Shown: positions 6,133 through 49,234, numbered from the stretch's first letter. The stretch is 64,000 nucleotides of DNA from Candidatus Alkanophaga liquidiphilum (GCA_029259535.1 JAPHEF010000004.1:5408-69407), one strand, 5' to 3'. Made by a program: numbers and translations. The notes: generated from the letters alone by a model not told the origin.

Positions 6133-9100
6133 ATGCGGGCGTGGCAACCTATTTTCATGTCTTCAGAGACGAGAGTCATCCCTGTGAGTGTCGAGGACGA
6201 GATGCGCACTTCTTACCTTGATTATGCGATGAGTGTCATCGTCGGAAGGGCGATTCCAGATGTGCGTGATGGTTTGAAGCCAGTACACCGCCGCATCATC
6301 TATGCAATGTATGAGATGGGGCTGACCGCTGATAAGCCGCACAAAAAGTGCGCAAGGGTCGTCGGCGAGGTTCTCGGCAAGTATCATCCGCACGGCGACG
6401 CTGCCGTCTACGACACGCTCGTCAGGATGGCGCAGTCGTTCTCGTATCGCTACCCGCTGATTGACGGGCAAGGGAACTTCGGCTCGGTGGATGGCGACGC
6501 GCCAGCGGCAATGCGCTATTGCCTTACCGGGGAGACGCTGATTGTTACAGAGAGGGGTTTGATGCGGCTTGAGGACGTGGTGCCGAGGTCGAAGGAATGC
6601 TCCGAGCACGAGATTTCGCTCGGCGTTCTCTCTCATTTAGGAGAAGCGCTTGCAGACTGCTTTTTCAACTCAGGTCGCCACCCAGTCCTGCGTGTCGAGA
6701 CCGAGATGGGGCAGAGCTTTTCCGGAACGAGCAACCATCCCGTCCTCGTGTGGGTGCGTGGCGAGGACGGTCGGCCGACGCTCGCTTGGAAGCTTCTTGG
6801 GGATTTGAAGCCCGGGGACTGGCTCGTGGTCCAGAGGGGTTTCCCCTCCGCCAAAGAGCGTTACAAGACGGGATGCCCCCTCGCCCCAGAAGTGACGGAG
6901 GGGCTTGCCTTCCTCCTCGGCGCCCTCCTCGCAGGAGGCTACGTCTCTGAAGGGAAAGTAGGCTTCAACAACACCGACCCCAACTTCGTGGCTGCTGTCG
7001 AAAACGAGCTTCAGAAGCTCATAGATGCCCGCTACTGCCGCTACGTTCACACGCTCCCCAACGGAAAGAAGGTGATAGAGCTTCAAATCTACGTGAGAGA
7101 ATTTCTCTCCCTGGTGGAGGCGCTCGGCTTCGTCGAGAAGAGTTGGGAGAGGAGGGTTCCGAAGGCTGTCTTAGCTTCGCCGAAAGAGGTTCAGAGAGCC
7201 TTTTTGAAAGCCCTCTTTGGGGGAGGCGGCTCAGTCTCTAAAGGAAAGAATACAGTACTCCTCGCCTACCGCTCGAAGAGCAGGAGGCTTCTTGAGGACC
7301 TTCAGGTTCTTCTCCTTTCCTTCGGCGTGGTCTCCAAGCTCCACAGAGATGGAAAAAATTGGAGACTGTTCATCTCAGGAATTAAAAACGTGGCAACGTT
7401 CGCCAGGGAAATAGGCTTTGCTGGAAAGAAGCAAGGAAAGCTTGAAGCACTTCTCACGGAGTTTAGGGGGGAGGCTCTCAGCAAGACTGATTTCATCCCC
7501 TTCCTCGCAGATTACTTGCGCGAACGTTACAAAGGTCGAGGCTGGGACATATGGCTACAAAAGCACAATATAGACCGCTACGAGCGTCTCTCAAGATACC
7601 TCCCAGAGCTTGAGAAGTTTTTAGAGCCTGAAGACTTTATTTTTGTCCTTTGGCTCCTCGAAAGGCACTTCTACTTCACGAAAGTCTCGGCAGTCCATTA
7701 TGATGGACAACAGACCGTTTACTCCCTGCGCGTCCCGGGACCGAACTCCTTTGTCGGGAATGGCTTCATACATCACAACACCGAAGCTCGCCTCTCCAAA
7801 ATTGCTGGGGAGCTGATAGCGGACATCCAGAAGAACACTGTTGGCTGGATGCCAAACTTCGACAACACGCTGAAAGAGCCGGTGGTGCTGCCCGCACGCC
7901 TCCCGAACCTCCTCGTGAACGGCACCTCCGGCATTGCAGTGGGCATGGCGACGAACATGCCGCCGCACAACTTGAGCGAAGTCGTGGATGCCATCGTAAG
8001 GTTCATAGACGAGCCTGAGGTGAGCATCGAGGAGTTGATGCAGGCGATAAAAGGTCCGGACTTCCCGACGGGCGGCGTGATTCTCGGGACTGAGGGGATA
8101 AAAAAAGCATATGAGACGGGGCGTGGCACCATAAAGATAAGAGCCGCCGTGGAGATAGAGGAGTCACGGCGGCGAGCCCGTGTAATAATCAAGGAAATCC
8201 CGTATCAAGTGAACAAGAGTGCGCTCGTCGAAGAGATTGCGAATCTCGTGCGGGAGCGGCGCATAGAGGGCATTGCCGACTTGCGGGACGAATCAGACCG
8301 CCGAGGACTGAGGATAGTCATCGAGCTCAAGCCCGGTGCGAATCCTGAGGTTATTTTGAACAATCTGTATAAGCACACGCCGCTTGAAGTCTCATACGGT
8401 ATCATAAACCTTGCACTCGTCAACGGCGAGCCTCGAATCCTTACGTTGAAGGATTTGATTAGGCATTACGTAGAACATCGCAAAGAAGTCGTGCGCCGTC
8501 GCCTTAACTACGAGCTTGAGGTCTCAGAGCGTAGGAAGCACGTCCTCGAGGGGCTTCTTGTGGCACTGGACAACATAGAGGAGGTTGTAAGAATAATAAA
8601 GTCAGCAAGGAAGACCGAGGACGCAAGAAGAATTTTGGTTTCGAGGTTTCGGCTTAGCGACGTGCAGGCAAAGGAAATACTTGAGATGCGGCTGTCAAGA
8701 CTTAGCGCTCTGGAGAGGGAGAAAATAGAGACGGAGGCGAGGGAGCTTGAGGGGAAGGTGGCGGGCATAAAGGAGACGTTAGCGAGCGAGCTACGAATAC
8801 TTGATGTGATAAAAGGGGAACTGAGGGAGATTAGGGAGAAATACGGCGACGAGAGACGGACTAAAATAGGAGAATACGTGGAGATAAAAGAGATTGATTT
8901 GATAGAGCGGCGGAACGACATTGTTATCGTTACTGCGGGCGGCTACATAAAGCGAATGCCAGAGGCGGCTTTCAGGAAACAAGAGCGTGGCGGGAAGGGC
9001 AGGAATGCGATGGCGCGGAAAGAAGAGGACATTATAAAGAGTCTTGCGTTCTCTTCGACGCTCGATTACTTGCTAATACTCACGAAGGACGGTAGGGCTT

Positions 9101-38939: not shown

Positions 38940-39593
38940 ATGAGGAAAAAGGAGCTTGAAATAATTTTAGAGGGGGTTGAGGACCTAAGCGAGGCGGACG
39001 TGCGTAGCGAGCAGTATATGACGCCTGCAGTGGTGGCGGCGGAGCTCCTACACTTCGCATTCATGCGTGGCGAGCTAAGCGGCGTTGTTTACGATCTCGG
39101 CTGCGGTACCGGCATCCTTGCCATCGGCGCAAAGTTGCTTGGCGCAAAGAAAGTCGTCGGCGTGGACAAAGATGCCCGCTGCATCGAGGTTGCGAGGAAA
39201 AACGCAAAGAAGCTTGGCGTCTCCGTCGAATTTCTGTGTTGCGACGTTCGAGACGTGCGAGCGATGGCAGCGGACGTCGTTGTGATGAACCCTCCTTTTG
39301 GCGCCCAGCGCAGCAACAGGCGGGCGGACCGCATCTTCCTCAAAAAAGCGCTTGAAATTGCACCCATCGTCTATACCATACATAACGCAGGCTCCGAACC
39401 TTTCATCAGAAAGTTTATCTCGCCCCACGTCATAACGCACAAGATAAACGCCAAATTCCCGCTAAAACGCAGGTTCCATTTCCACAAGAAGGACGTGAAG
39501 GTCATAGAGGTGGAAATTTACAGGCTGGAAGGACGAAAAGAGCGTGAAAAAGAGCTGCGACAAGGCTTTATATCAAGAAAACTTTCTAATTAA
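38940..39593 (+). CDS. METTL5-like (COG2263) methyltransferase
   Basis: EQYMTP, VYDLGCGTGILAIGA (motif I) and MNPPFG (NPPF motif IV). Confidence 0.7.
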   Translation: MRKKELEIILEGVEDLSEADVRSEQYMTPAVVAAELLHFAFMRGELSGVVYDLGCGTGILAIGAKLLGAKKVVGVDKDARCIEVARKNAKKLGVSVEFLCCDVRDVRAMAADVVVMNPPFGAQRSNRRADRIFLKKALEIAPIVYTIHNAGSEPFIRKFISPHVITHKINAKFPLKRRFHFHKKDVKVIEVEIYRLEGRKEREKELRQGFISRKLSN

Positions 39594-41038
39594 TGATGGA
39601 AAAAAGAATGCCCCCTGAGCTTGTAGAGGCATTATCTTCGGACAGGGGCTTCTCATTACTGATAAAGGGGGCGCCGGGCACCGGGAAGACGATGCTCGCC
39701 CTTGAGATACTCAAGGAGTTTGGCGATTCTAATGGCGTTTATCTTTCGACAAGGGTGTCGCCCTCGTCGCTCTACGAGCAGTTCCCGTGGCTCGAAGACA
39801 GCATCCCCCCGCTCAACATTATAGACGCGACGAAGCTTTACGTCTCGGCGGATGCGCCGTTCGGCATACAATCCTTTCCCGAGGTCCTGTATTCGAGGCT
39901 TGGCAAAATAAAGAGACCGGCGACCATCGTGATAGACAGCTGGGACGCCGTGATAGCGCAAGTTGAGGATGAGAAGAGGGTTGTTGCGCTCGAAGGGGCA
40001 ATTGCCGAGCTCGTGCGGCAAGCCCGAATAAACCTCGTGCTCGTCTCCGAAAATATGAGCGTAGGCACTCTTGATTACATGGTTGATGGCATAGTCGTAA
40101 TGCGGAGTTTTGACATGGATTACAGGATGATACGGGAGCTGGAGATAAAGAAGCTGCGGGGCATCAGGATTCTGCGACACAAGTATCCGTTCACGCTGCA
40201 CGGCGGCAGGTTCCGAAGTTTCCCCGAATTCCGCTTCTACAAGGTCAAAAACCCAAGAACCAAGGTGCTTTCTAACACCGAGGGCTACGTCTCAACAGGT
40301 ATAAAAGAATTCGACGAGCTGCTTGGCGGCGGCTACAGACGAGGAGGCTTCATCGTCTTTGACGTGGGTAGCGACATTTCTGCATGGGGCGGCTTGACGA
40401 TATTCGGTTTTTCGATCGTGAACGCCGTCAAAAATAAGAATTACGTCGTCTGTCTACCGTTCTCGGGTAGGGGCGAACGCTACGTGCGCTCGCACATCAT
40501 GTCGTTCGTCGGCGAGGATGCATACAACAGATACGTGACCGTTTTCGAGATATGCGAGCTGGAAAAGACCGAGAGCGGGGACGAGGTGCTGTGCGAAGAG
40601 GTAAAGAAAGAGGTAGAGCTGGGCGTAAGAGGTGGAAACGTCATCCCCTTGATGGGAGAGTCCATAGAGGACGACCTTTCGATGGTTCGTAAATATATCG
40701 GTGGGCTCGACCCGCCCGTGCTCACGATAATAGGGACGGACGTCATAGAGCACCTCTACAGGCTTGAGGAACGGGGGAAGCTAAGCGATGCGATTAAAGA
40801 GCTGACGGCATATGCCTTGCAGACAAGGGCGAGAGGCGACGTCACGCTCGTCCGCATCACGCCCGAGCTCAAGATGGCGCCGCAAATCATGGAGATGGCG
40901 AGCGCCTGCTTCAGGATAACCACGATCGACCGCACGGTAGTCCTCTACGGTATCCGCCCCGAGACCGGGCATTACTGCCTGAGCACTGAACTTGTTGAAG
41001 AGGACTGCATAATGCCAAAGCTTACTCCTTATGCCTGA
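39593..41038 (+). CDS. KaiC/GvpD-like RecA-superfamily ATPase with two domains (second lacks a P-loop)
   Basis: Walker A is LLIKGAPGTGKTMLALE and Walker B-like is TIVIDSWD. A second RecA-like half begins STGIKEFDELLGGGYRRGGFIVFDVGSD. The ATG overlaps the TAA of the methyltransferase (TAATGATG). Confidence 0.7.
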   Translation: MMEKRMPPELVEALSSDRGFSLLIKGAPGTGKTMLALEILKEFGDSNGVYLSTRVSPSSLYEQFPWLEDSIPPLNIIDATKLYVSADAPFGIQSFPEVLYSRLGKIKRPATIVIDSWDAVIAQVEDEKRVVALEGAIAELVRQARINLVLVSENMSVGTLDYMVDGIVVMRSFDMDYRMIRELEIKKLRGIRILRHKYPFTLHGGRFRSFPEFRFYKVKNPRTKVLSNTEGYVSTGIKEFDELLGGGYRRGGFIVFDVGSDISAWGGLTIFGFSIVNAVKNKNYVVCLPFSGRGERYVRSHIMSFVGEDAYNRYVTVFEICELEKTESGDEVLCEEVKKEVELGVRGGNVIPLMGESIEDDLSMVRKYIGGLDPPVLTIIGTDVIEHLYRLEERGKLSDAIKELTAYALQTRARGDVTLVRITPELKMAPQIMEMASACFRITTIDRTVVLYGIRPETGHYCLSTELVEEDCIMPKLTPYA

Positions 41039-41055: not shown

Positions 41056-41259
41056 ATGAGCGATGATGACGAGCAGAGGCGGCTTGGGATGGAGATTGAC
41101 GTGCAGCCGATGGTCGGTGGAAACATAATAATCACGTTCGGGCGTGTGGACGTTGAGCTGACGAAGGAGCAGGCGGAACACTTAAAAGTACTTCTTATAG
41201 ATGCCCTTGAGCGGTGTGAGCGTGACCCGTTCCTCAGAAGGGTCCACGAACGCCAGTAA
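41056..41259 (+). CDS. small hypothetical protein P1
   Basis: 67-aa ORF beginning 18 nt after the KaiC-like stop. Weak resemblance to domain X (IDVQPMVGGNIIITFGRVDVELTKEQ). Its 3' end overlaps P2 by 78 nt. Confidence 0.4.
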   Translation: MSDDDEQRRLGMEIDVQPMVGGNIIITFGRVDVELTKEQAEHLKVLLIDALERCERDPFLRRVHERQ

Positions 41260-41430
41260 CGTGCGCTCCGTCAGTAGGAAAAAATCGTCGCCACACCTCT
41301 CTTTTATCTCTTCTATGCTCTTGCTGTCGAAATAGATGCGCTTGCCCCGCTCGTTGCCCGCCCGCTGCACCGAGACCACAAGCTCCAAGACCTCCTTCTC
41401 AGCAGCCTTCGTTTCCTTCTTCTCAGTCAT
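41182..41430 (-). CDS. small hypothetical protein P2 (domain X)
   Basis: 82 aa, beginning 9 nt downstream of the AAA+ gene on the same strand. ELVVSVQRAGNERGKRIYFDSKSIEEIKE is paralogous to the P3 N-terminus. Confidence 0.5.
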   Translation of the reverse strand: MTEKKETKAAEKEVLELVVSVQRAGNERGKRIYFDSKSIEEIKERCGDDFFLLTERTLLAFVDPSEERVTLTPLKGIYKKYF

Positions 41431-41438
41431 GCCTACCC

Positions 41439-42320
41439 CTACGCATACCCAAATACCTTCTCCTCGCTCGCTCCCAGCTCCTTAAAATATTCAAAAAGCT
41501 CAGGAAAAAACTCCTCCATCTTCCTTTCCACAATCTTCAGCTTCGCCACCCGCAGCCAGTATAAGAGCGATGAGCGGCGGCTTTTTATCGCTTTAAGGAA
41601 ATCTTCCATGCAAATCTCCCGTGGCGGCTTGCCCTGTAACGCCTCCTCCAGCGGGAAGGTCGCCGCATCGTTGCAAATTTCACGAATATCCGCCCCGGAG
41701 TGGCCGTCGGTGAGCCTTGCCAGCTCCCGCAAGTCCACATCCTCAGCCACGGGTCTACCTTGGAGATGAATCTTAAAAATTTCAACCCGTGCCTTGAATC
41801 CTGGCGGCGGCACGAACAACAGCTTGTCGAAACGCCCCGGACGCATGAGCGCCGGGTCTATGCTCCACGGGGAGTTCGTAGCCGCGAGAATCATCACGTC
41901 CCCCCGGTCCTCAAAACCGTCAAGCTCCGTCAAAAACGCATTCAAGACCCGCCGCTCGTGGTGTTCGGCGTCCTGATGCGAGCCAATACTATCGATTTCG
42001 TCGAAAAATAGGATTGCCGGGGAGTTTTTCCGTGCTTCCTCGAAGACGAACTGGATGTTCTTGTCAGTCTCGCCATACCACTTGCTCAGCAAGTCTGCGG
42101 TCTTAATGTTGTAGAACTTCGCCTGCACCTCGCCGGCGGTCGCCCGTGCGAGTAGGGTCTTGCCGCAGCCCGGCGGACCGTAGAGCAGGATGCTGCTTTT
42201 CAGCCCCCTTTTGTAAAGCTCGTATAAATCGGGGCGTTTTAACGGATAAATGATAGAGAGCATGATTTCCCGCTTTATCCGCTCGAGGTCGCCGACGTCG
42301 GCGAAGGTGACCCTTTTCAT
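41439..42320 (-). CDS. single-domain AAA+ ATPase (classical Cdc48/FtsH-type AAA clade)
   Basis: VTFADVGDLE, Walker A LLYGPPGCGKTLLA, Walker B ILFFDEIDS, SRH ATNSPWSIDPALMRPGRFD. The track start 42386 would place a TATA box inside the codons (ATGGCATATAAAAC), so Met 42320 (MKRVTFADVGD) is preferred. Confidence 0.85.
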   Translation of the reverse strand: MKRVTFADVGDLERIKREIMLSIIYPLKRPDLYELYKRGLKSSILLYGPPGCGKTLLARATAGEVQAKFYNIKTADLLSKWYGETDKNIQFVFEEARKNSPAILFFDEIDSIGSHQDAEHHERRVLNAFLTELDGFEDRGDVMILAATNSPWSIDPALMRPGRFDKLLFVPPPGFKARVEIFKIHLQGRPVAEDVDLRELARLTDGHSGADIREICNDAATFPLEEALQGKPPREICMEDFLKAIKSRRSSLLYWLRVAKLKIVERKMEEFFPELFEYFKELGASEEKVFGYA

Positions 42321-42373
42321 CAGATATACTGGGCGGCACCACAATAAATGCTTTTCCACATGTTCACCGAAAG

Positions 42374-42383
42374 TTTTATATGC
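42374..42383. promoter_or_regulatory. candidate shared bidirectional TATA box
   Basis: TTTTATATGC reads as a TATA box on both strands (GCATATAAAA). It lies about 35-40 nt from the P3 ATG (42416) and about 55 nt from the AAA+ ATG (42320). Confidence 0.45.
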
Positions 42384-42415
42384 CACTGGTTACATATGTT
42401 ACACTGGGGACACCG

Positions 42416-42922
42416 ATGGAGCGGGATGAGCCTCTCGTCGTGAGCGTGCATGAAAAGGGCGAAAAGCGGGGCCTATCTTTATATTTCGGCAGTAAAGAGC
42501 TTAAGCAGCTCGAAAAGATGGGAATACGCCTCAAGGACGTGAGAAAGTTTGTAGTATTCGTCCGGAACAACAAGATGTGCTTGATACCCCTCTCCGACGT
42601 TGCGAGGCGTGAGCACGAGGACATCGGTGTCCTCTTCGAGATAACAAGCCGCTTGGACGACGTGATGGCGCTAGGCGACGGCGAGCTTGAGGAGCTGAGC
42701 GAGGAGTTGCTCTCGATAATTGTGGAGAGCGGCGTGAGGCTGGCGGCGTCCGAGAAGACTGCGATAATGCGGATGATGAAGGGCGTGCGCACGAGGGACG
42801 TGATGAAAAGCGTGCTCAGCATTTGTGCACGAGCGAACTCTAAGGAAACTCTCGCCGTCATAAATCGGCTTGTTATCTCGAGGTCTAAAGAAAAAGGAGG
42901 TGATGAGGAAGATGGAATCTGA
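42416..42922 (+). CDS. hypothetical protein P3 (domain X + domain Y)
   Basis: The N-terminus PLVVSVHEKGEKRGLSLYFGSKELKQLEK is paralogous to P2. The C-terminus GELEELSEELLSII...AIMRMMKGVRTRDVMKSVL is paralogous to P4 and to the Mer N-extension. Confidence 0.55.
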   Translation: MERDEPLVVSVHEKGEKRGLSLYFGSKELKQLEKMGIRLKDVRKFVVFVRNNKMCLIPLSDVARREHEDIGVLFEITSRLDDVMALGDGELEELSEELLSIIVESGVRLAASEKTAIMRMMKGVRTRDVMKSVLSICARANSKETLAVINRLVISRSKEKGGDEEDGI

Positions 42923-43238
42923 AAAGGAAAGAGAGGTAGAAAGAGGCGAGCTGGAGTTCGAGCTGAAGCCCGTAGAGTTCGAGGACGAGGCGGAGCGGCT
43001 GATGGAGGCGGTGCTTGAGCGGGTTGCCGAGATGAGTGATGCCGAACTTCGAGATTTGAGCGACGAGCTTGTAGAGCTTGCCGCTGAGATTGATACGGAA
43101 CTTGACCGCAGGGCTGCGAACACGCTCATGGCGCTTATAAAGGGGCATTACACCGCTTACGCCTTCCGAAATGCCATTGGGACATGCCTAAAGGTAGCCC
43201 CTGATAAGACGCAAGAGGTATTGAGAAGACATACGTGA
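42912..43238 (+). CDS. hypothetical protein P4 (domain Y)
   Basis: SD GGAGGTGA lies 9 nt before the ATG at 42912, and the gene overlaps the P3 stop by 11 nt. AELRDLSDELVELAAE...LMALIKGHYTAYAFRNAI. Confidence 0.5.
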   Translation: MESEKEREVERGELEFELKPVEFEDEAERLMEAVLERVAEMSDAELRDLSDELVELAAEIDTELDRRAANTLMALIKGHYTAYAFRNAIGTCLKVAPDKTQEVLRRHT

Positions 43239-43241
43239 GGG

Positions 43242-44528
43242 ATGGAAATGGCTGAAATCACGAGGAATGGCGTGGAAAGGATGTTAAAGCGGCTGGAGAG
43301 GTTCGGGAAAGAGGCGATGGACGAGCTGCTCGACGATATCCTCGCAATTCTGACGAGCGAAGACGTCGAGCGTGCGGCGCTGACGCCGAGAGAGCGAGCG
43401 GACATAATAGCGCTGATAAAGGGGAGATACACGCCGCAGGCGTTCTTCAACGCATTGCAGGTGGCGGCACGCATCTTAGAAGACCAGCGGAAGGCACTTC
43501 CCGCGCGGGAGGTCCTGAAGCCTGTTGAGCGGCGGGTGCAGTTCGGCGTGGAGCTCGTGCCTTCGATGTCGCTGGACAAGGTTGTGGAGTATGCGAGGCG
43601 GTTCGAACTCGGCGGCGCCGACTTCGTCTGGATTACCGACCACTACACGAACAGAGACCCATACGTGACACTCTCCTTGATTGCGAGGGCGACTGACGTC
43701 ATGAACCTCGGCGTCGGCGTCACGAACCCTTACACGCGCCACATCGCTTCGACGGCGTCGGCGGTCGCCTCTCTAGACGAGCTTTCAGAGGGGCGAGCGG
43801 CTCTCGGCTTAGGTCCCGGTGACCGCTCCACACTCGCAGCTCTGAACATCGAGCTGGAGAAGCCGCTGACGCGGGTGAAGGAAACGGTTCTGGCGTTGAG
43901 GGCGTTGTGGAGTGGAGAGCCCGTGAGGTTCGACGGGAAGACAGTGCGGCTCGAGGGGGCAAGGATGAGCTTCAGACCGCCTAACGAAATACCCATCTAC
44001 ATCGGGGCGCAAGGCCCGAAGATGCTCAGGCTCGCAGGGGAGATTGGCGATGGCGTCCTGATAAACGCCTCCAACGAAAAAGATTTCGAACTGGCGTCAA
44101 AGAACATAAAAAGCGGCGTGGAGGCGGCGAACCGCAAGCTCAAAGACGTAGACGTCGTCGCTTACACATGCTTCTCCGTCGCAGAGAGCGAGGCGGACGC
44201 AAAGAAGGCGGCAACGCCAGTTGTAGCCTTCATCGCCGCAGGTTCGCCAGAAAACGTCCTCGAAAGGCACGGGCTCGACGTCGAAAAGGCTAACAAGATG
44301 AAAGAGCTCATCTCGAAGGGTAAAATACCCGACGCCTTCGCCCTCGTGGACGACGACTTCATAGAGGCGTTCTCGGTCAGCGGAACGCCAGAACAGTGCA
44401 TAAACAAGATTGAGACCCTACTCAAAGCTGGCGTCACGCAGTTCGTCTTCGGCTCGCCCCTAGGCAAGAAGAAAAAAGATGCCCTACAATTGATTACTGA
44501 GAAGGTGATGCCTGCGTTCACCGCTTAA
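43242..44528 (+). CDS. mer: 5,10-methylenetetrahydromethanopterin reductase (F420-dependent) with a 98-codon in-frame N-terminal extension (domain Y)
   Basis: From codon 99 (GTG 43536) the sequence VQFGVELVP...WITDHYTNRDPYVTL...VTNPYTRH...GLGPGD...IYIGAQGPKMLRLAGEIGDGVLINAS...AFIAAGSP...GVTQFVFGSP is collinear with Mer. The upstream 98 codons read ...MDELLDDILAIL...IIALIKGRYTPQAFFNAL. Confidence 0.85.
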   Translation: MEMAEITRNGVERMLKRLERFGKEAMDELLDDILAILTSEDVERAALTPRERADIIALIKGRYTPQAFFNALQVAARILEDQRKALPAREVLKPVERRVQFGVELVPSMSLDKVVEYARRFELGGADFVWITDHYTNRDPYVTLSLIARATDVMNLGVGVTNPYTRHIASTASAVASLDELSEGRAALGLGPGDRSTLAALNIELEKPLTRVKETVLALRALWSGEPVRFDGKTVRLEGARMSFRPPNEIPIYIGAQGPKMLRLAGEIGDGVLINASNEKDFELASKNIKSGVEAANRKLKDVDVVAYTCFSVAESEADAKKAATPVVAFIAAGSPENVLERHGLDVEKANKMKELISKGKIPDAFALVDDDFIEAFSVSGTPEQCINKIETLLKAGVTQFVFGSPLGKKKKDALQLITEKVMPAFTA

Positions 44529-49160: not shown

Positions 49161-49234
49161 GCCCCGGTAGCTTAGCCCGGAAGAGCGGCTGACTTGTAAT
49201 CAGCAGGTCGGGGGTTCAAATCCCCCCCGGGGCT
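49161..49234 (+). tRNA. tRNA-Thr (anticodon UGU)
   Basis: The cloverleaf was read by hand. Acceptor gccccgg/ccggggc, D arm gctt-agcccggaa-gagc, anticodon stem gctga/tcagc with loop cuUGUaa, T arm ggggg-ttcaaat-ccccc, discriminator t. No CCA is encoded. Confidence 0.9.

Follow-up and report, generated by a model that had tools for sequence, protein, structure and literature searches.

The genome of Candidatus Alkanophaga liquidiphilum (GCA_029259535.1) raises, in a stretch of 64,000 nucleotides (JAPHEF010000004.1:5408-69407; hereafter the window, from whose first letter positions are counted unless a locus is named), the question of what is done by four small genes, P1 to P4, that lie among two ATPase genes and the gene for Mer, the F420-dependent 5,10-methylene-tetrahydromethanopterin (H4MPT) reductase. 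The region from 39.6 to 44.5 kb comprises seven genes, encoding a KaiC-like ATPase, P1, P2, an AAA ATPase, P3, P4 and Mer, and all the small open reading frames (ORFs) were found where a first-pass annotation had placed them. This annotation had described two unrecognised domains, X and Y, among the small proteins and the N-terminus of Mer, and had proposed a regulatory, assembly or turnover system dedicated to Mer around the AAA ATPase. That family of hypotheses stands, with the evidence favouring regulation; its Mer-specific, AAA-centred form does not. The genes are read here, tentatively, as a regulatory module that is confined to certain lineages and serves a single step of the oxidative Wood–Ljungdahl pathway, that of the methyl-/methylene-H4MPT reductase; this reading we consider possible, if not quite probable. 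The range of the module is the Syntrophoarchaeia and a few other uncultured archaea. Loci used for comparison are designated by L numbers, and homologous proteins by four-digit P numbers.

The identity of the enzyme is clear. The catalytic core of Mer (43536..44528, plus strand) was matched by the NCBIfam equivalogs PRK02271 (441.9 bits, cut-off 276) and TIGR03555 (424.1 bits, cut-off 348.7) over residues 100-426, an equivalog-level match across the full catalytic domain. The gene starts at 43248, as does the deposited OD815_000385, and the source data of Zehnle 2023 (PMC10322722) contain the identical sequence as Aph_liquidiphilum_mer_OD815_000385. That study singles out OD815_000385 as the canonical mer, reports its expression as ranging from 0 to ~3900 fragments per kilobase (FPK) across alkane cultures, with the peak in Ca. 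A. liquidiphilum on alkanes ≥ C10, and states that Alkanophaga encodes and expresses both Mer and MetF (PMC10322722). The core is preceded by a Y domain and a linker (43248..43535, plus strand). The deposited protein already contains this N-terminal extension, of which no mention was found in the accessible part of Zehnle 2023 (PMC10322722).

Domain Y is common to the C-terminus of P3, to P4 and to the first ~96 residues of Mer, in agreement with the first-pass annotation, with Smith–Waterman z values of 5.9-9.3 and hhalign E-values of 2e-6 to 7e-14. The z values derive from 2000 shuffles of the window proteins alone, and the hhalign family alignments were drawn from seven or eight loci. The P3 C-terminus and P4 were aligned with z = 9.3 (hhalign 98%, E = 7e-14; P3 78-154, P4 32-108), P4 and the Mer N-terminus with z = 8.6 (97.8%, E = 1.2e-12), and the P3 C-terminus and the Mer N-terminus with z = 5.9 (89.5%, E = 2e-6). 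The domain is ~75-80 aa long, and its K-G-H-Y-T-like turn holds one almost invariant Gly. It ranges from acidic to neutral and has no DNA-binding signature; it was predicted as all-helical in the AlphaFold2 (AF2) model of P3, with a predicted local distance difference test (pLDDT) value of ~90. P3 (42416..42922, plus strand, 168 aa) is the leading gene of the P3-P4-Mer operon and, as had been claimed, carries both domains in one chain, X at aa 1-66 and helical Y at aa ~78-160, according to the AF2 model and an alignment of seven homologues. P4 (plus strand, to 43238) is an acidic protein that hhalign identifies as Y only; its 5' end overlaps the 3' end of P3, and it is 111 aa long if it starts at 42903 or 108 aa if it starts at 42912, the latter start being probably the correct one, with the better Shine–Dalgarno spacing.

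The Y copy on Mer belongs, by subtype comparison, to a Mer-proximal subtype with a 3-residue insert, the motif LTPRER...IKGRYTP (LT-x-RE) and the last Y helix missing, which adjoins the Mer core in P0138, P0140, P0148, P0156, L019, L020, L022 and L023. As the same subtype stands beside the core in every fusion, the Y-Mer fusion is old, with P4-type copies added in some lineages. P4 orthologues are present in all Syntrophoarchaeia loci, and in L019, L020 and L022 it forms part of Mer, where it is the first of the two fused Y copies. Tandem N-terminal Y repeats on Mer number 8 in P0138 (1079 aa), 6 in P0140 (886 aa) and 2 in P0148 (543 aa); the last of these is encoded on a 1.48-Mb contig of GCA_019058315.1. 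A separate observation concerns L003, in which an in-frame TAG (6757-6759) lies between the Y domain and the Mer core, exactly at the linker of the fused Alkanophaga genes, and in which the first Mer strand has no suitable start codon ahead of it; the TAG could be a genuine split, a sequencing error or a site of read-through.

Domain X had been given as a 45-aa unit common to P2 and P3, with a weaker copy in P1. The relationship between P2 (41182..41430, minus strand, 82 aa with an acidic/lysine-rich tail) and the P3 N-terminus is upheld by z = 7.9, a score reached in none of the 2000 shuffles, and by hhalign between P2 17-79 and P3 10-67 (93% probability, E = 2.5e-7), and the domain proved to be ~60 aa long, taking in essentially all of P2 except its charged tail. 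Gly, Arg-Gly, Tyr-Phe and Gly positions are invariant across P2 and P3. P1 (41056..41259, plus strand), a small acidic protein of 67 aa, has to be removed from the family, with z < 1 against every partner and hhalign < 1% against X and Y; both the shuffle test and hhalign rule it out as a copy of X. It is a conserved gene of its own, with 62-84% identity over 10 loci and 29 invariant columns, and found no match in Pfam, PDB sequences or NCBIfam. The idea that the P2 C-terminus is a half Y domain, drawn from MAFFT placement and a KG-x-Y motif seen by eye, was rejected because the alignment of P2 with the P3 X domain runs from end to end; hhalign gave 0.2% between P2 and the Mer N-terminus and 2.5% between P2 and P4.

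X is always N-terminal, and its C-terminal partner is none, Y or a domain of ~200 aa. The latter, conserved and following a P2-like X, was observed in L022 (7567-8349), L019 (7015-7932), P0160, P0162 and P0168, and had no Pfam match in any of these. Relatives of P2 form 132 clusters at 65-89% identity, among them Methanophagales/ANME-1 (anaerobic methanotrophic archaea) and 'Methanospirareceae' metagenome-assembled genomes (MAGs); the protein is conserved at this level in both the methane oxidisers and the alkane oxidisers among the archaea. The small ORFs are genuine genes under purifying selection, as synonymous exceed non-synonymous codon changes between the window and L004 in P2 (22:5), P3 (48:24), the Mer N-terminus (35:12) and P1 (17:12).

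The view that X and Y belong to no named family was sustained in Pfam-A, NCBIfam, PADLOC, PDB sequences and Foldseek searches of the PDB. P1, P2, P3, P4 and the Mer N-terminus gave no match in Pfam-A, NCBIfam or PADLOC, and the hidden Markov model profiles of X, Y and P1 retrieved nothing at E ≤ 0.2 from 177,635 PDB sequences; for the Y profile nothing lay under E = 0.26, and Foldseek of the Y model against the PDB returned nothing under E = 0.4. When 38 Y copies were scanned singly against Pfam, no family matched more than one copy. Two candidates for Y were discarded: the MCM5 C-terminal winged helix, which rests on one match of 31.7 bits (P0138) and occurs as MCM5_C in only 1 of the 38 copies, and a LuxR/GerE-type helix-turn-helix, suggested by the likeness by eye of LTPRER..G to the first helix of GerE and by one match of E = 0.027, which is not recurrent and differs in the spacing to the conserved Thr.

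Seven cluster-level homologues of P3 were retrieved among 5.8 billion proteins, the Y profile gave 18 matches, and an exhaustive HMMER scan of 1.84 billion representatives with the combined X+Y profile gave 34 proteins, among which are the Mer proteins with 8, 6 and 2 Y repeats, the X fusions P0160, P0162 and P0168 and further X-Y proteins; the homologue of Ca. Alkanophaga volatiphilum is 87% identical to P3. A P3-type X-Y gene lies directly upstream of reductase genes in all 11 distinct loci (Mer in 7, MetV-MetF in 4), and this adjacency spans lineages down to 30% P3 identity. The order P3-P4-(Y)Mer is found in the window, L004/L005 (A. volatiphilum), L003 and L023, the order P3-Y2Mer in L019, L020 and L022, and P3-MetV-MetF-HdrA-FrhB... 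in L002, L006 (Ca. Syntrophoarchaeum sp.), L007 and L009-12. In L022 both arrangements diverge from one spacer, with the X-fusion gene leading FlpD-MetV-MetF and P3 leading Y-Mer. The linkage of the small genes to ATPases and mer is therefore conserved in related genomes, as had been expected, while the supposed specificity for Mer is lost, since the same module precedes MetV-MetF-HdrA where Mer is absent. MetV-MetF(-HdrA) is non-homologous to Mer; the module tracks a metabolic function, and Y is fused to one of the two enzymes, which makes chance adjacency very unlikely.

Why MetF has taken the place of Mer in ANME-1 and Syntrophoarchaeum is unexplained, and the role of MetF in these archaea is only inferred (Chadwick et al. 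2022). The presence of an orthologous P3 module ahead of both Mer and MetV-MetF-HdrA provides independent genomic-context evidence that the two fill the same functional slot, and a third group holds both arrangements side by side.

The DNA ahead of P3 is conserved as well. The first-pass annotation had derived the AAA-P2 and P3-P4-Mer units from a single palindromic TATA element, and this has to be corrected: TTTATAT at 42375-42381 belongs to the P3 promoter, and the AAA gene has its own TATA-like box (42344..42349, TTTATT on the minus strand), a putative promoter of the AAA-P2 unit by its conservation, with the column ATAAAT/TTAAAT kept at every locus in which the AAA and P3 genes are divergent. 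This box (42344-49) lies 24-29 nt ahead of the AAA ATG, which suggests a leaderless or near-leaderless mRNA, and its separate conservation indicates that the two units stand back to back without a common TATA. The P3 promoter (42370..42415, plus strand), recognised by conservation across loci, consists of an AAAG resembling a transcription factor B recognition element, the TATA box and an operator-like palindromic element, which together read AAAG, TTTATAT, CAC-N-GT-N-ACATAT(G/A)T-TACA...GACAC and then ATG. Downstream of the TATA box and ahead of the expected start site lies a perfect palindrome, ACATATGT (42392-42399), and GACACC stands directly ahead of the P3 ATG in the window.

This element has 40 invariant columns over 7 loci, including L003, where the KaiC operon lies upstream instead of the AAA gene, and is conserved far beyond the neutral expectation at 50-60% protein identity. 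Where P4 is a separate unit, in the MetVF-type loci L002 (position 4709) and L007 (position 8507), it is duplicated ahead of P4, and the 218 kb of loci contain no further copy. A related sequence, GTCACCTGTGAC, stands in the KaiC-MetV spacer of L017, where only KaiC-P1-P2 is present. The stretch was also considered as a coding extension of P3 and rejected: its start codon would lie in the TATA box and is ATA or ATT in 3 of 7 loci, and the element is judged not to be coding because changes are not concentrated at third codon positions and because it recurs ahead of P4 without an ORF. P3 starts at 42416, the ATG at 42380 falling within the TATA box. Public gene calls (P0001, 180 aa; P0007; P0009; P0015) begin P3 at the ATG inside its TATA box, and the P0001-type call translates the conserved promoter element as a spurious 'VTYVTLGTP' extension.

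The domain homologies and fusions are established, as are the synteny and the conserved DNA element; from them binding, titration and unfolding are inferred, and the module may work as follows. The basic X domain of P3 would be an N-terminal DNA-binding and dimerising domain of AbrB/MazE-like topology, as modelled, through which P3 would bind the promoter element and autoregulate the P3-P4-reductase operon. Y would be a protein-protein interaction domain, and P4 and the Mer-borne Y copies may hetero-oligomerise with the Y domain of P3 and titrate it, so that, by analogy with the SinI/SinR-type antagonism of a truncated paralogue, the enzyme product would feed back on its own regulator. P2, with X only, may compete with P3 or enter into mixed dimers with it. 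Together with P1 and P2, the GvpD-like KaiC ATPase would act post-translationally on the small proteins, as GvpD does on GvpE, and the Cdc48-D2-like AAA ATPase without N-domain, where present, would likewise do so, possibly by unfolding them or by delivering them to the proteasome through its conserved penultimate tyrosine.

Several observations count for a regulatory reading, among them the X and Y homologies, the selection on the small genes, the position of P3 in the 11 loci, the arrangement in L022, GTCACCTGTGAC in L017, the GvpD_P-loop match of the KaiC-like protein and the weak structural matches of X to AbrB-superfamily proteins. One-component regulators are built as the X proteins are, X keeping the N-terminal place while the C-terminal partner varies. 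The X domain of P3 is basic (pI 9.7, with P4 at pI 4.7), and the TATA-plus-palindrome element is kept in L003 and duplicated ahead of P4. Both P4-type and Mer-type Y domains are fused to Mer, a Rosetta-stone argument for interaction, mer expression varies between cultures over the range given above, and P2 in ANME-1 is found among signalling genes.

For X a likeness to AbrB had been guessed; the predicted topology fits and the sequence and profile tests fail. In the AF2 model of P3 (overall pLDDT 75) X was predicted as strands 8-14 and 17-23, helix 26-34 and strands 45-50 and 53-58, and in that of P2 (pLDDT 80, core 81-93) as strands 19-23 and 30-34, helix 36-46, a possible helix 51-54 and strands 58-63 and 68-73, a beta-beta-alpha-(alpha)-beta-beta-alpha topology. 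Both predictions contain the beta1-beta2-alpha-beta3-beta4 order of the ~50-residue AbrB/MazE/SpoVT monomer. That X would form the interleaved, DNA-binding homodimeric barrel of this superfamily is supported indirectly by the basic X domain of P3 and by the palindromic promoter element. Foldseek against the PDB matched P3 to MazE (2mrn, probability 0.44, root-mean-square deviation 4.0 over 57 columns, and 1ub4_C) and P2 to VapB (6nkl_C, template-modelling score (TM) 0.45-0.49) and Sso7c4 (5itj/5itm, TMt 0.54-0.60), all weak matches with E > 1, in which the AbrB superfamily is the sole recurring theme for two independent models. Like AbrB/MazE/SpoVT/VapB proteins, including Sso7c4 and AbrB-PhoU, X is small, always N-terminal and followed by variable C-terminal domains, with a predicted beta-beta-alpha-beta-beta order and a first hairpin rich in glycine and arginine. 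It differs from them in the lack of any significant sequence, profile or structure score (Foldseek E > 0.4), in an extra short helix (P2 51-54) and in a conserved YF-x-SK motif absent from AbrB. X as an AbrB-like domain is thus a lead from the models and not established.

Other results weigh against the regulatory reading. With the P3 and P2 models, Foldseek returned nothing from the PDB under E = 0.4; no Pfam family, MazE_antitoxin and AbrB included, matched the X region of P2 or P3 at E ≤ 1; the X profile found no AbrB-type match among PDB sequences at E ≤ 10; and hhalign between X and four AbrB N-domains, genuine ones carried by neighbouring PhoU proteins, gave 2%. Nor is the X core of P2 basic; it is neutral. 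The conserved P3 promoter element could be bound by a different factor, and an array of 6-8 Y repeats on Mer suggests a scaffold more readily than a feedback sensor. L019 and L022 keep P3-Y-Mer without the ATPases, so that the ATPase coupling rests on adjacency in a subset of lineages.

The KaiC-like ATPase (39593..41038, plus strand, 481 aa) has two domains. Its first RecA-like domain has the Walker A motif GAPGTGKT and its second domain is without Walker A; Pfam gave GvpD_P-loop PF07088 with 71.8 bits (cut-off 24, residues 16-184) and the KaiC ATPase with 66.8 bits, and the best PDB relatives are KaiC (E = 1e-14). GvpD_bR2 PF20440 reached 24.5 bits, under its cut-off of 27.9, in the window protein, and its match in the L017 orthologue was not marked as weak. 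The protein is no circadian KaiC, given 57 bits against a cut-off of 408 for NCBIfam KaiC and the missing second Walker A. Orthologues adjoin P1 and P2 in at least 9 loci. The three genes travel together, accompanied by P3 in the Syntrophoarchaeia loci and L023, alone and divergent from MetV-MetF in L017 (a Halobacteriota MAG), and beside PAS kinases, response regulators and EarA genes in ANME-1; they are the wider core of the module, also present in ANME-1. Copies of X, Y or P1 were found neither on other proteins of the loci nor elsewhere in the 64-kb window.

The AAA ATPase (41439..42320, minus strand) is a classic single-ring protein of 293 aa, the start of which was corrected to 42320 from a GTG at 42386. 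Pfam AAA (145.7 bits) and AAA_lid_3 were matched, and its nearest PDB relatives are the D2 domains of p97/VAT (E = 1e-121). Against NCBIfam it remained under the cut-offs of CDC48 (245/803), PAN (235/500) and CdvC (219/650), with only the AAA core and lid aligned. Walker A and B, the pore loop KWYG and the arginine fingers RPGRFD are kept, and the N-domain is absent, the protein starting ~40 residues ahead of Walker A. A penultimate Tyr is the key feature of the HbYX and GQYL proteasome-docking tails. In the AAA protein the penultimate Tyr is invariant in 8 orthologues and preceded by Gly (F/S/Y-G-Y-A/V/I), and because of this Gly, unlike HbYX, the tail is only a hint of proteasome docking. 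The protein thus resembles Cdc48/VAT and PAN in an AAA domain nearest to the Cdc48/p97/VAT D2, an aromatic pore loop and a penultimate C-terminal Tyr, and differs from them as a predicted single ring of 293 aa without N-domain or coiled coil, far under the family cut-offs and with a G-Y-x and not an Hb-Y-x tail. The gene is present only in Alkanophaga and Syntrophoarchaeum-type loci and is missing at several loci that have P3-P4-Mer or KaiC-P1-P2; the central place in the module that had been supposed for the AAA ATPase is therefore not supported, and the Cdc48-D2-like protein is a lineage-specific addition to it. A defence system was also considered and rejected, PADLOC yielding only generic AAA-core matches to IetA and TRIP13.

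The main rival to regulation is a scaffold or metabolon, which appears rather unlikely to us. X and Y would be purely docking domains that assemble a metabolon around the methylene-H4MPT reductase, for example in coupling to Hdr-type electron-bifurcating partners; Y-Y contacts would tether Mer to P3 and P4, X-X contacts would link P2 or the X fusions, the ATPases would assemble or remodel the complex, and no transcriptional role would exist. The 2, 6 and 8 tandem Y copies on Mer do resemble scaffoldin or carrier-domain architectures, the acidic to neutral, all-helical Y without a DNA-binding signature and the lack of significant matches of X to DNA-binding families agree with docking, and HdrA-like genes follow MetVF, and Y2-Mer in L019. 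Yet in no locus are X or Y borne by MetV, MetF, HdrA, FrhB or FlpD, which leaves nothing to dock in the MetVF-type genomes. A further point against this explanation is that Mer, simple and soluble, has no need of assembly factors; the explanation also leaves the basic P3 X domain, the operator-like element and the operon-leading position of P3 unexplained and does not account for the P2 kept in ANME-1 beside signalling genes with no Mer or MetF nearby.

A more elaborate form of control appears unlikely: X and Y would be two new domain families of a hitherto undescribed, enzyme-coupled, ATP-driven control circuit in which Mer carries the interaction domain of its own regulator, and the KaiC ATPase with P1/P2 and the AAA ATPase would use X dimers as detachable N-domains and reset the circuit by unfolding or degrading X/Y proteins, the circuit being kept through the swap from Mer to MetVF-Hdr.

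Turnover is distinctly unlikely. Here the Y domain on Mer would be a handle or degron, with P2, P3 and P4 as adaptors that bring Y-tagged Mer, or one another, to the AAA unfoldase and the 20S proteasome, and the level of Mer would be tuned during shifts between Mer and MetF. An AAA ATPase with intact pore loop, Walker motifs and arginine fingers and no N-domain would need adaptors in trans, its invariant G-Y-[AVI] end recalls the HbYX/GQYL docking motifs, P2 is predicted from the gene arrangement to be co-transcribed with the AAA gene in Alkanophaga, and both Mer and MetF are encoded and expressed there, according to Zehnle 2023 (PMC10322722). Against this, the AAA gene is missing in L017, L019, L020, L022 and L023, which keep Y-Mer and/or KaiC-P1-P2, and is present in Syntrophoarchaeum-type loci without Mer or any Y-tagged enzyme; moreover, the antepenultimate residue is Gly and not hydrophobic, contrary to the HbYX definition, and a degron needs no multiple Y copies.

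That the genes form a mobile, defence-like or unrelated island, placed beside mer or metVF by shared ancestry, with X/Y similarity from local duplications and no role in C1 metabolism, is highly improbable and already largely refuted by the Y-Mer fusions, found in at least 5 divergent lineages, and by P3, which adjoins the reductase genes in all 11 loci although gene order is rearranged elsewhere; the sub-family-level AAA matches to the IetA/TRIP13 defence models are weaker than those to generic CDC48/PAN and confined to the AAA core, and the shuffled gene order between lineages and the absence of functional annotation for the small proteins are set against a module that follows function (Mer or MetVF) and not one gene family, and against strong purifying selection on the small genes.

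The preferred regulatory reading was also compared with other known systems. GvpD post-translationally lowers the level of the activator GvpE. As in the GvpD/GvpE system of haloarchaeal gas vesicles, a GvpD_P-loop protein of the KaiC superfamily is found beside small, presumably regulatory proteins and a presumed target operon; the differences are that P1, P2 and P3 belong to unrelated families, that the target is a catabolic C1 enzyme and that GvpD_bR2 is below threshold in the window. Neither a Gvp domain nor a GvpE homologue was detected on the called neighbours in the loci examined, the rest of the window not having been scanned for gvp genes. As in SinR/SinI, truncated paralogues accompany the putative regulator: P4 and the Mer N-terminus each reproduce the C-terminal domain of P3, and P2 its N-terminal domain. 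Their genes are neighbours, and those of P3 and P4 have the same promoter element ahead of them. In contrast to SinR/SinI, other folds and families are involved, one 'antagonist' copy is fused to an enzyme, with up to 8 copies in tandem, and the antagonism is a proposed one.

KaiC-like ATPases have reportedly been described by Makarova, Galperin and Koonin, in 2017 (cited in PMC5847659), as hubs of archaeal signal transduction. Similar to such hubs, the module has a two-domain KaiC-like protein with a probably inactive second domain and small partner proteins, and lies near PAS kinases and response regulators in ANME-1 and L017; the link to Mer/MetVF, the X and Y domains and the AAA partner were not found in the literature searched. 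Within that literature, which did not extend to the 2017 work, no paper was found that ties KaiC/GvpD-like genes, the small proteins or the Mer N-terminal domain to ANME or alkane-oxidising archaea. In kind, the system was rated as a KaiC-centred regulatory module of archaea whose antagonists are paralogues and whose parts belong to unassigned domain families.

Three conserved archaeal families without annotation, P1, X and Y, are hereby defined, and Mer enzymes have been uncovered that bear as many as eight repeats of an unnamed domain at the N-terminus. The module also names specific proteins and a promoter element that could govern the choice between Mer and MetF. If the regulatory model is true, it would be among the few described regulatory circuits for reverse methanogenesis or alkane oxidation and a new use of a KaiC-like ATPase.

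Further observations concern the individual genes. P1 and P2 are convergent, and their last ~26 codons share the same 78 nt (41182-41259) on opposite strands, so that convergent transcripts would be antisense to each other. The overlap is kept in distant lineages (L004 6464-6535, L006 5029-5097, L013 8217-8282, L017 8184-8231); in L002, L007, L009, L015 and L023 the two genes are separated, and an antisense 'ghost' of the partner C-terminus persists. The C-terminus of the KaiC-like ATPase (41036-41038) is P-Y-[AV] in Alkanophaga-type loci, with Tyr replaced by F, I or V in Syntrophoarchaeum-type loci, and is less conserved than the AAA tail. In the JGI contig L001 (1772-3216, corresponding to 39593-41038), otherwise 99-100% identical to the window, the KaiC-like gene is split by a frameshift near residue 64, which is strain variation or an assembly error, and in L013 the KaiC-like gene beside P2 is broken in two pieces.

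In the ANME-1 (Methanophagales) MAGs L013/L014 (4500-9800) and L015/L016 (1400-8300), P2 lies among a PAS histidine kinase and a response regulator, with two EarA-family regulators and Mrp/Fpo-like antiporter subunits also nearby. AbrB/MazE-PhoU genes flank the P3-Y2Mer operon in L019 (8128-9222), L020 (6767-7855 and 10308-11384) and L022 (6373-7443), and may stand in for the ATPase part in this AT-rich lineage without a nearby AAA gene. A tRNA-Thr (TGT) at 49161-49234 is the sole Rfam/ARAGORN match in the 64-kb window.

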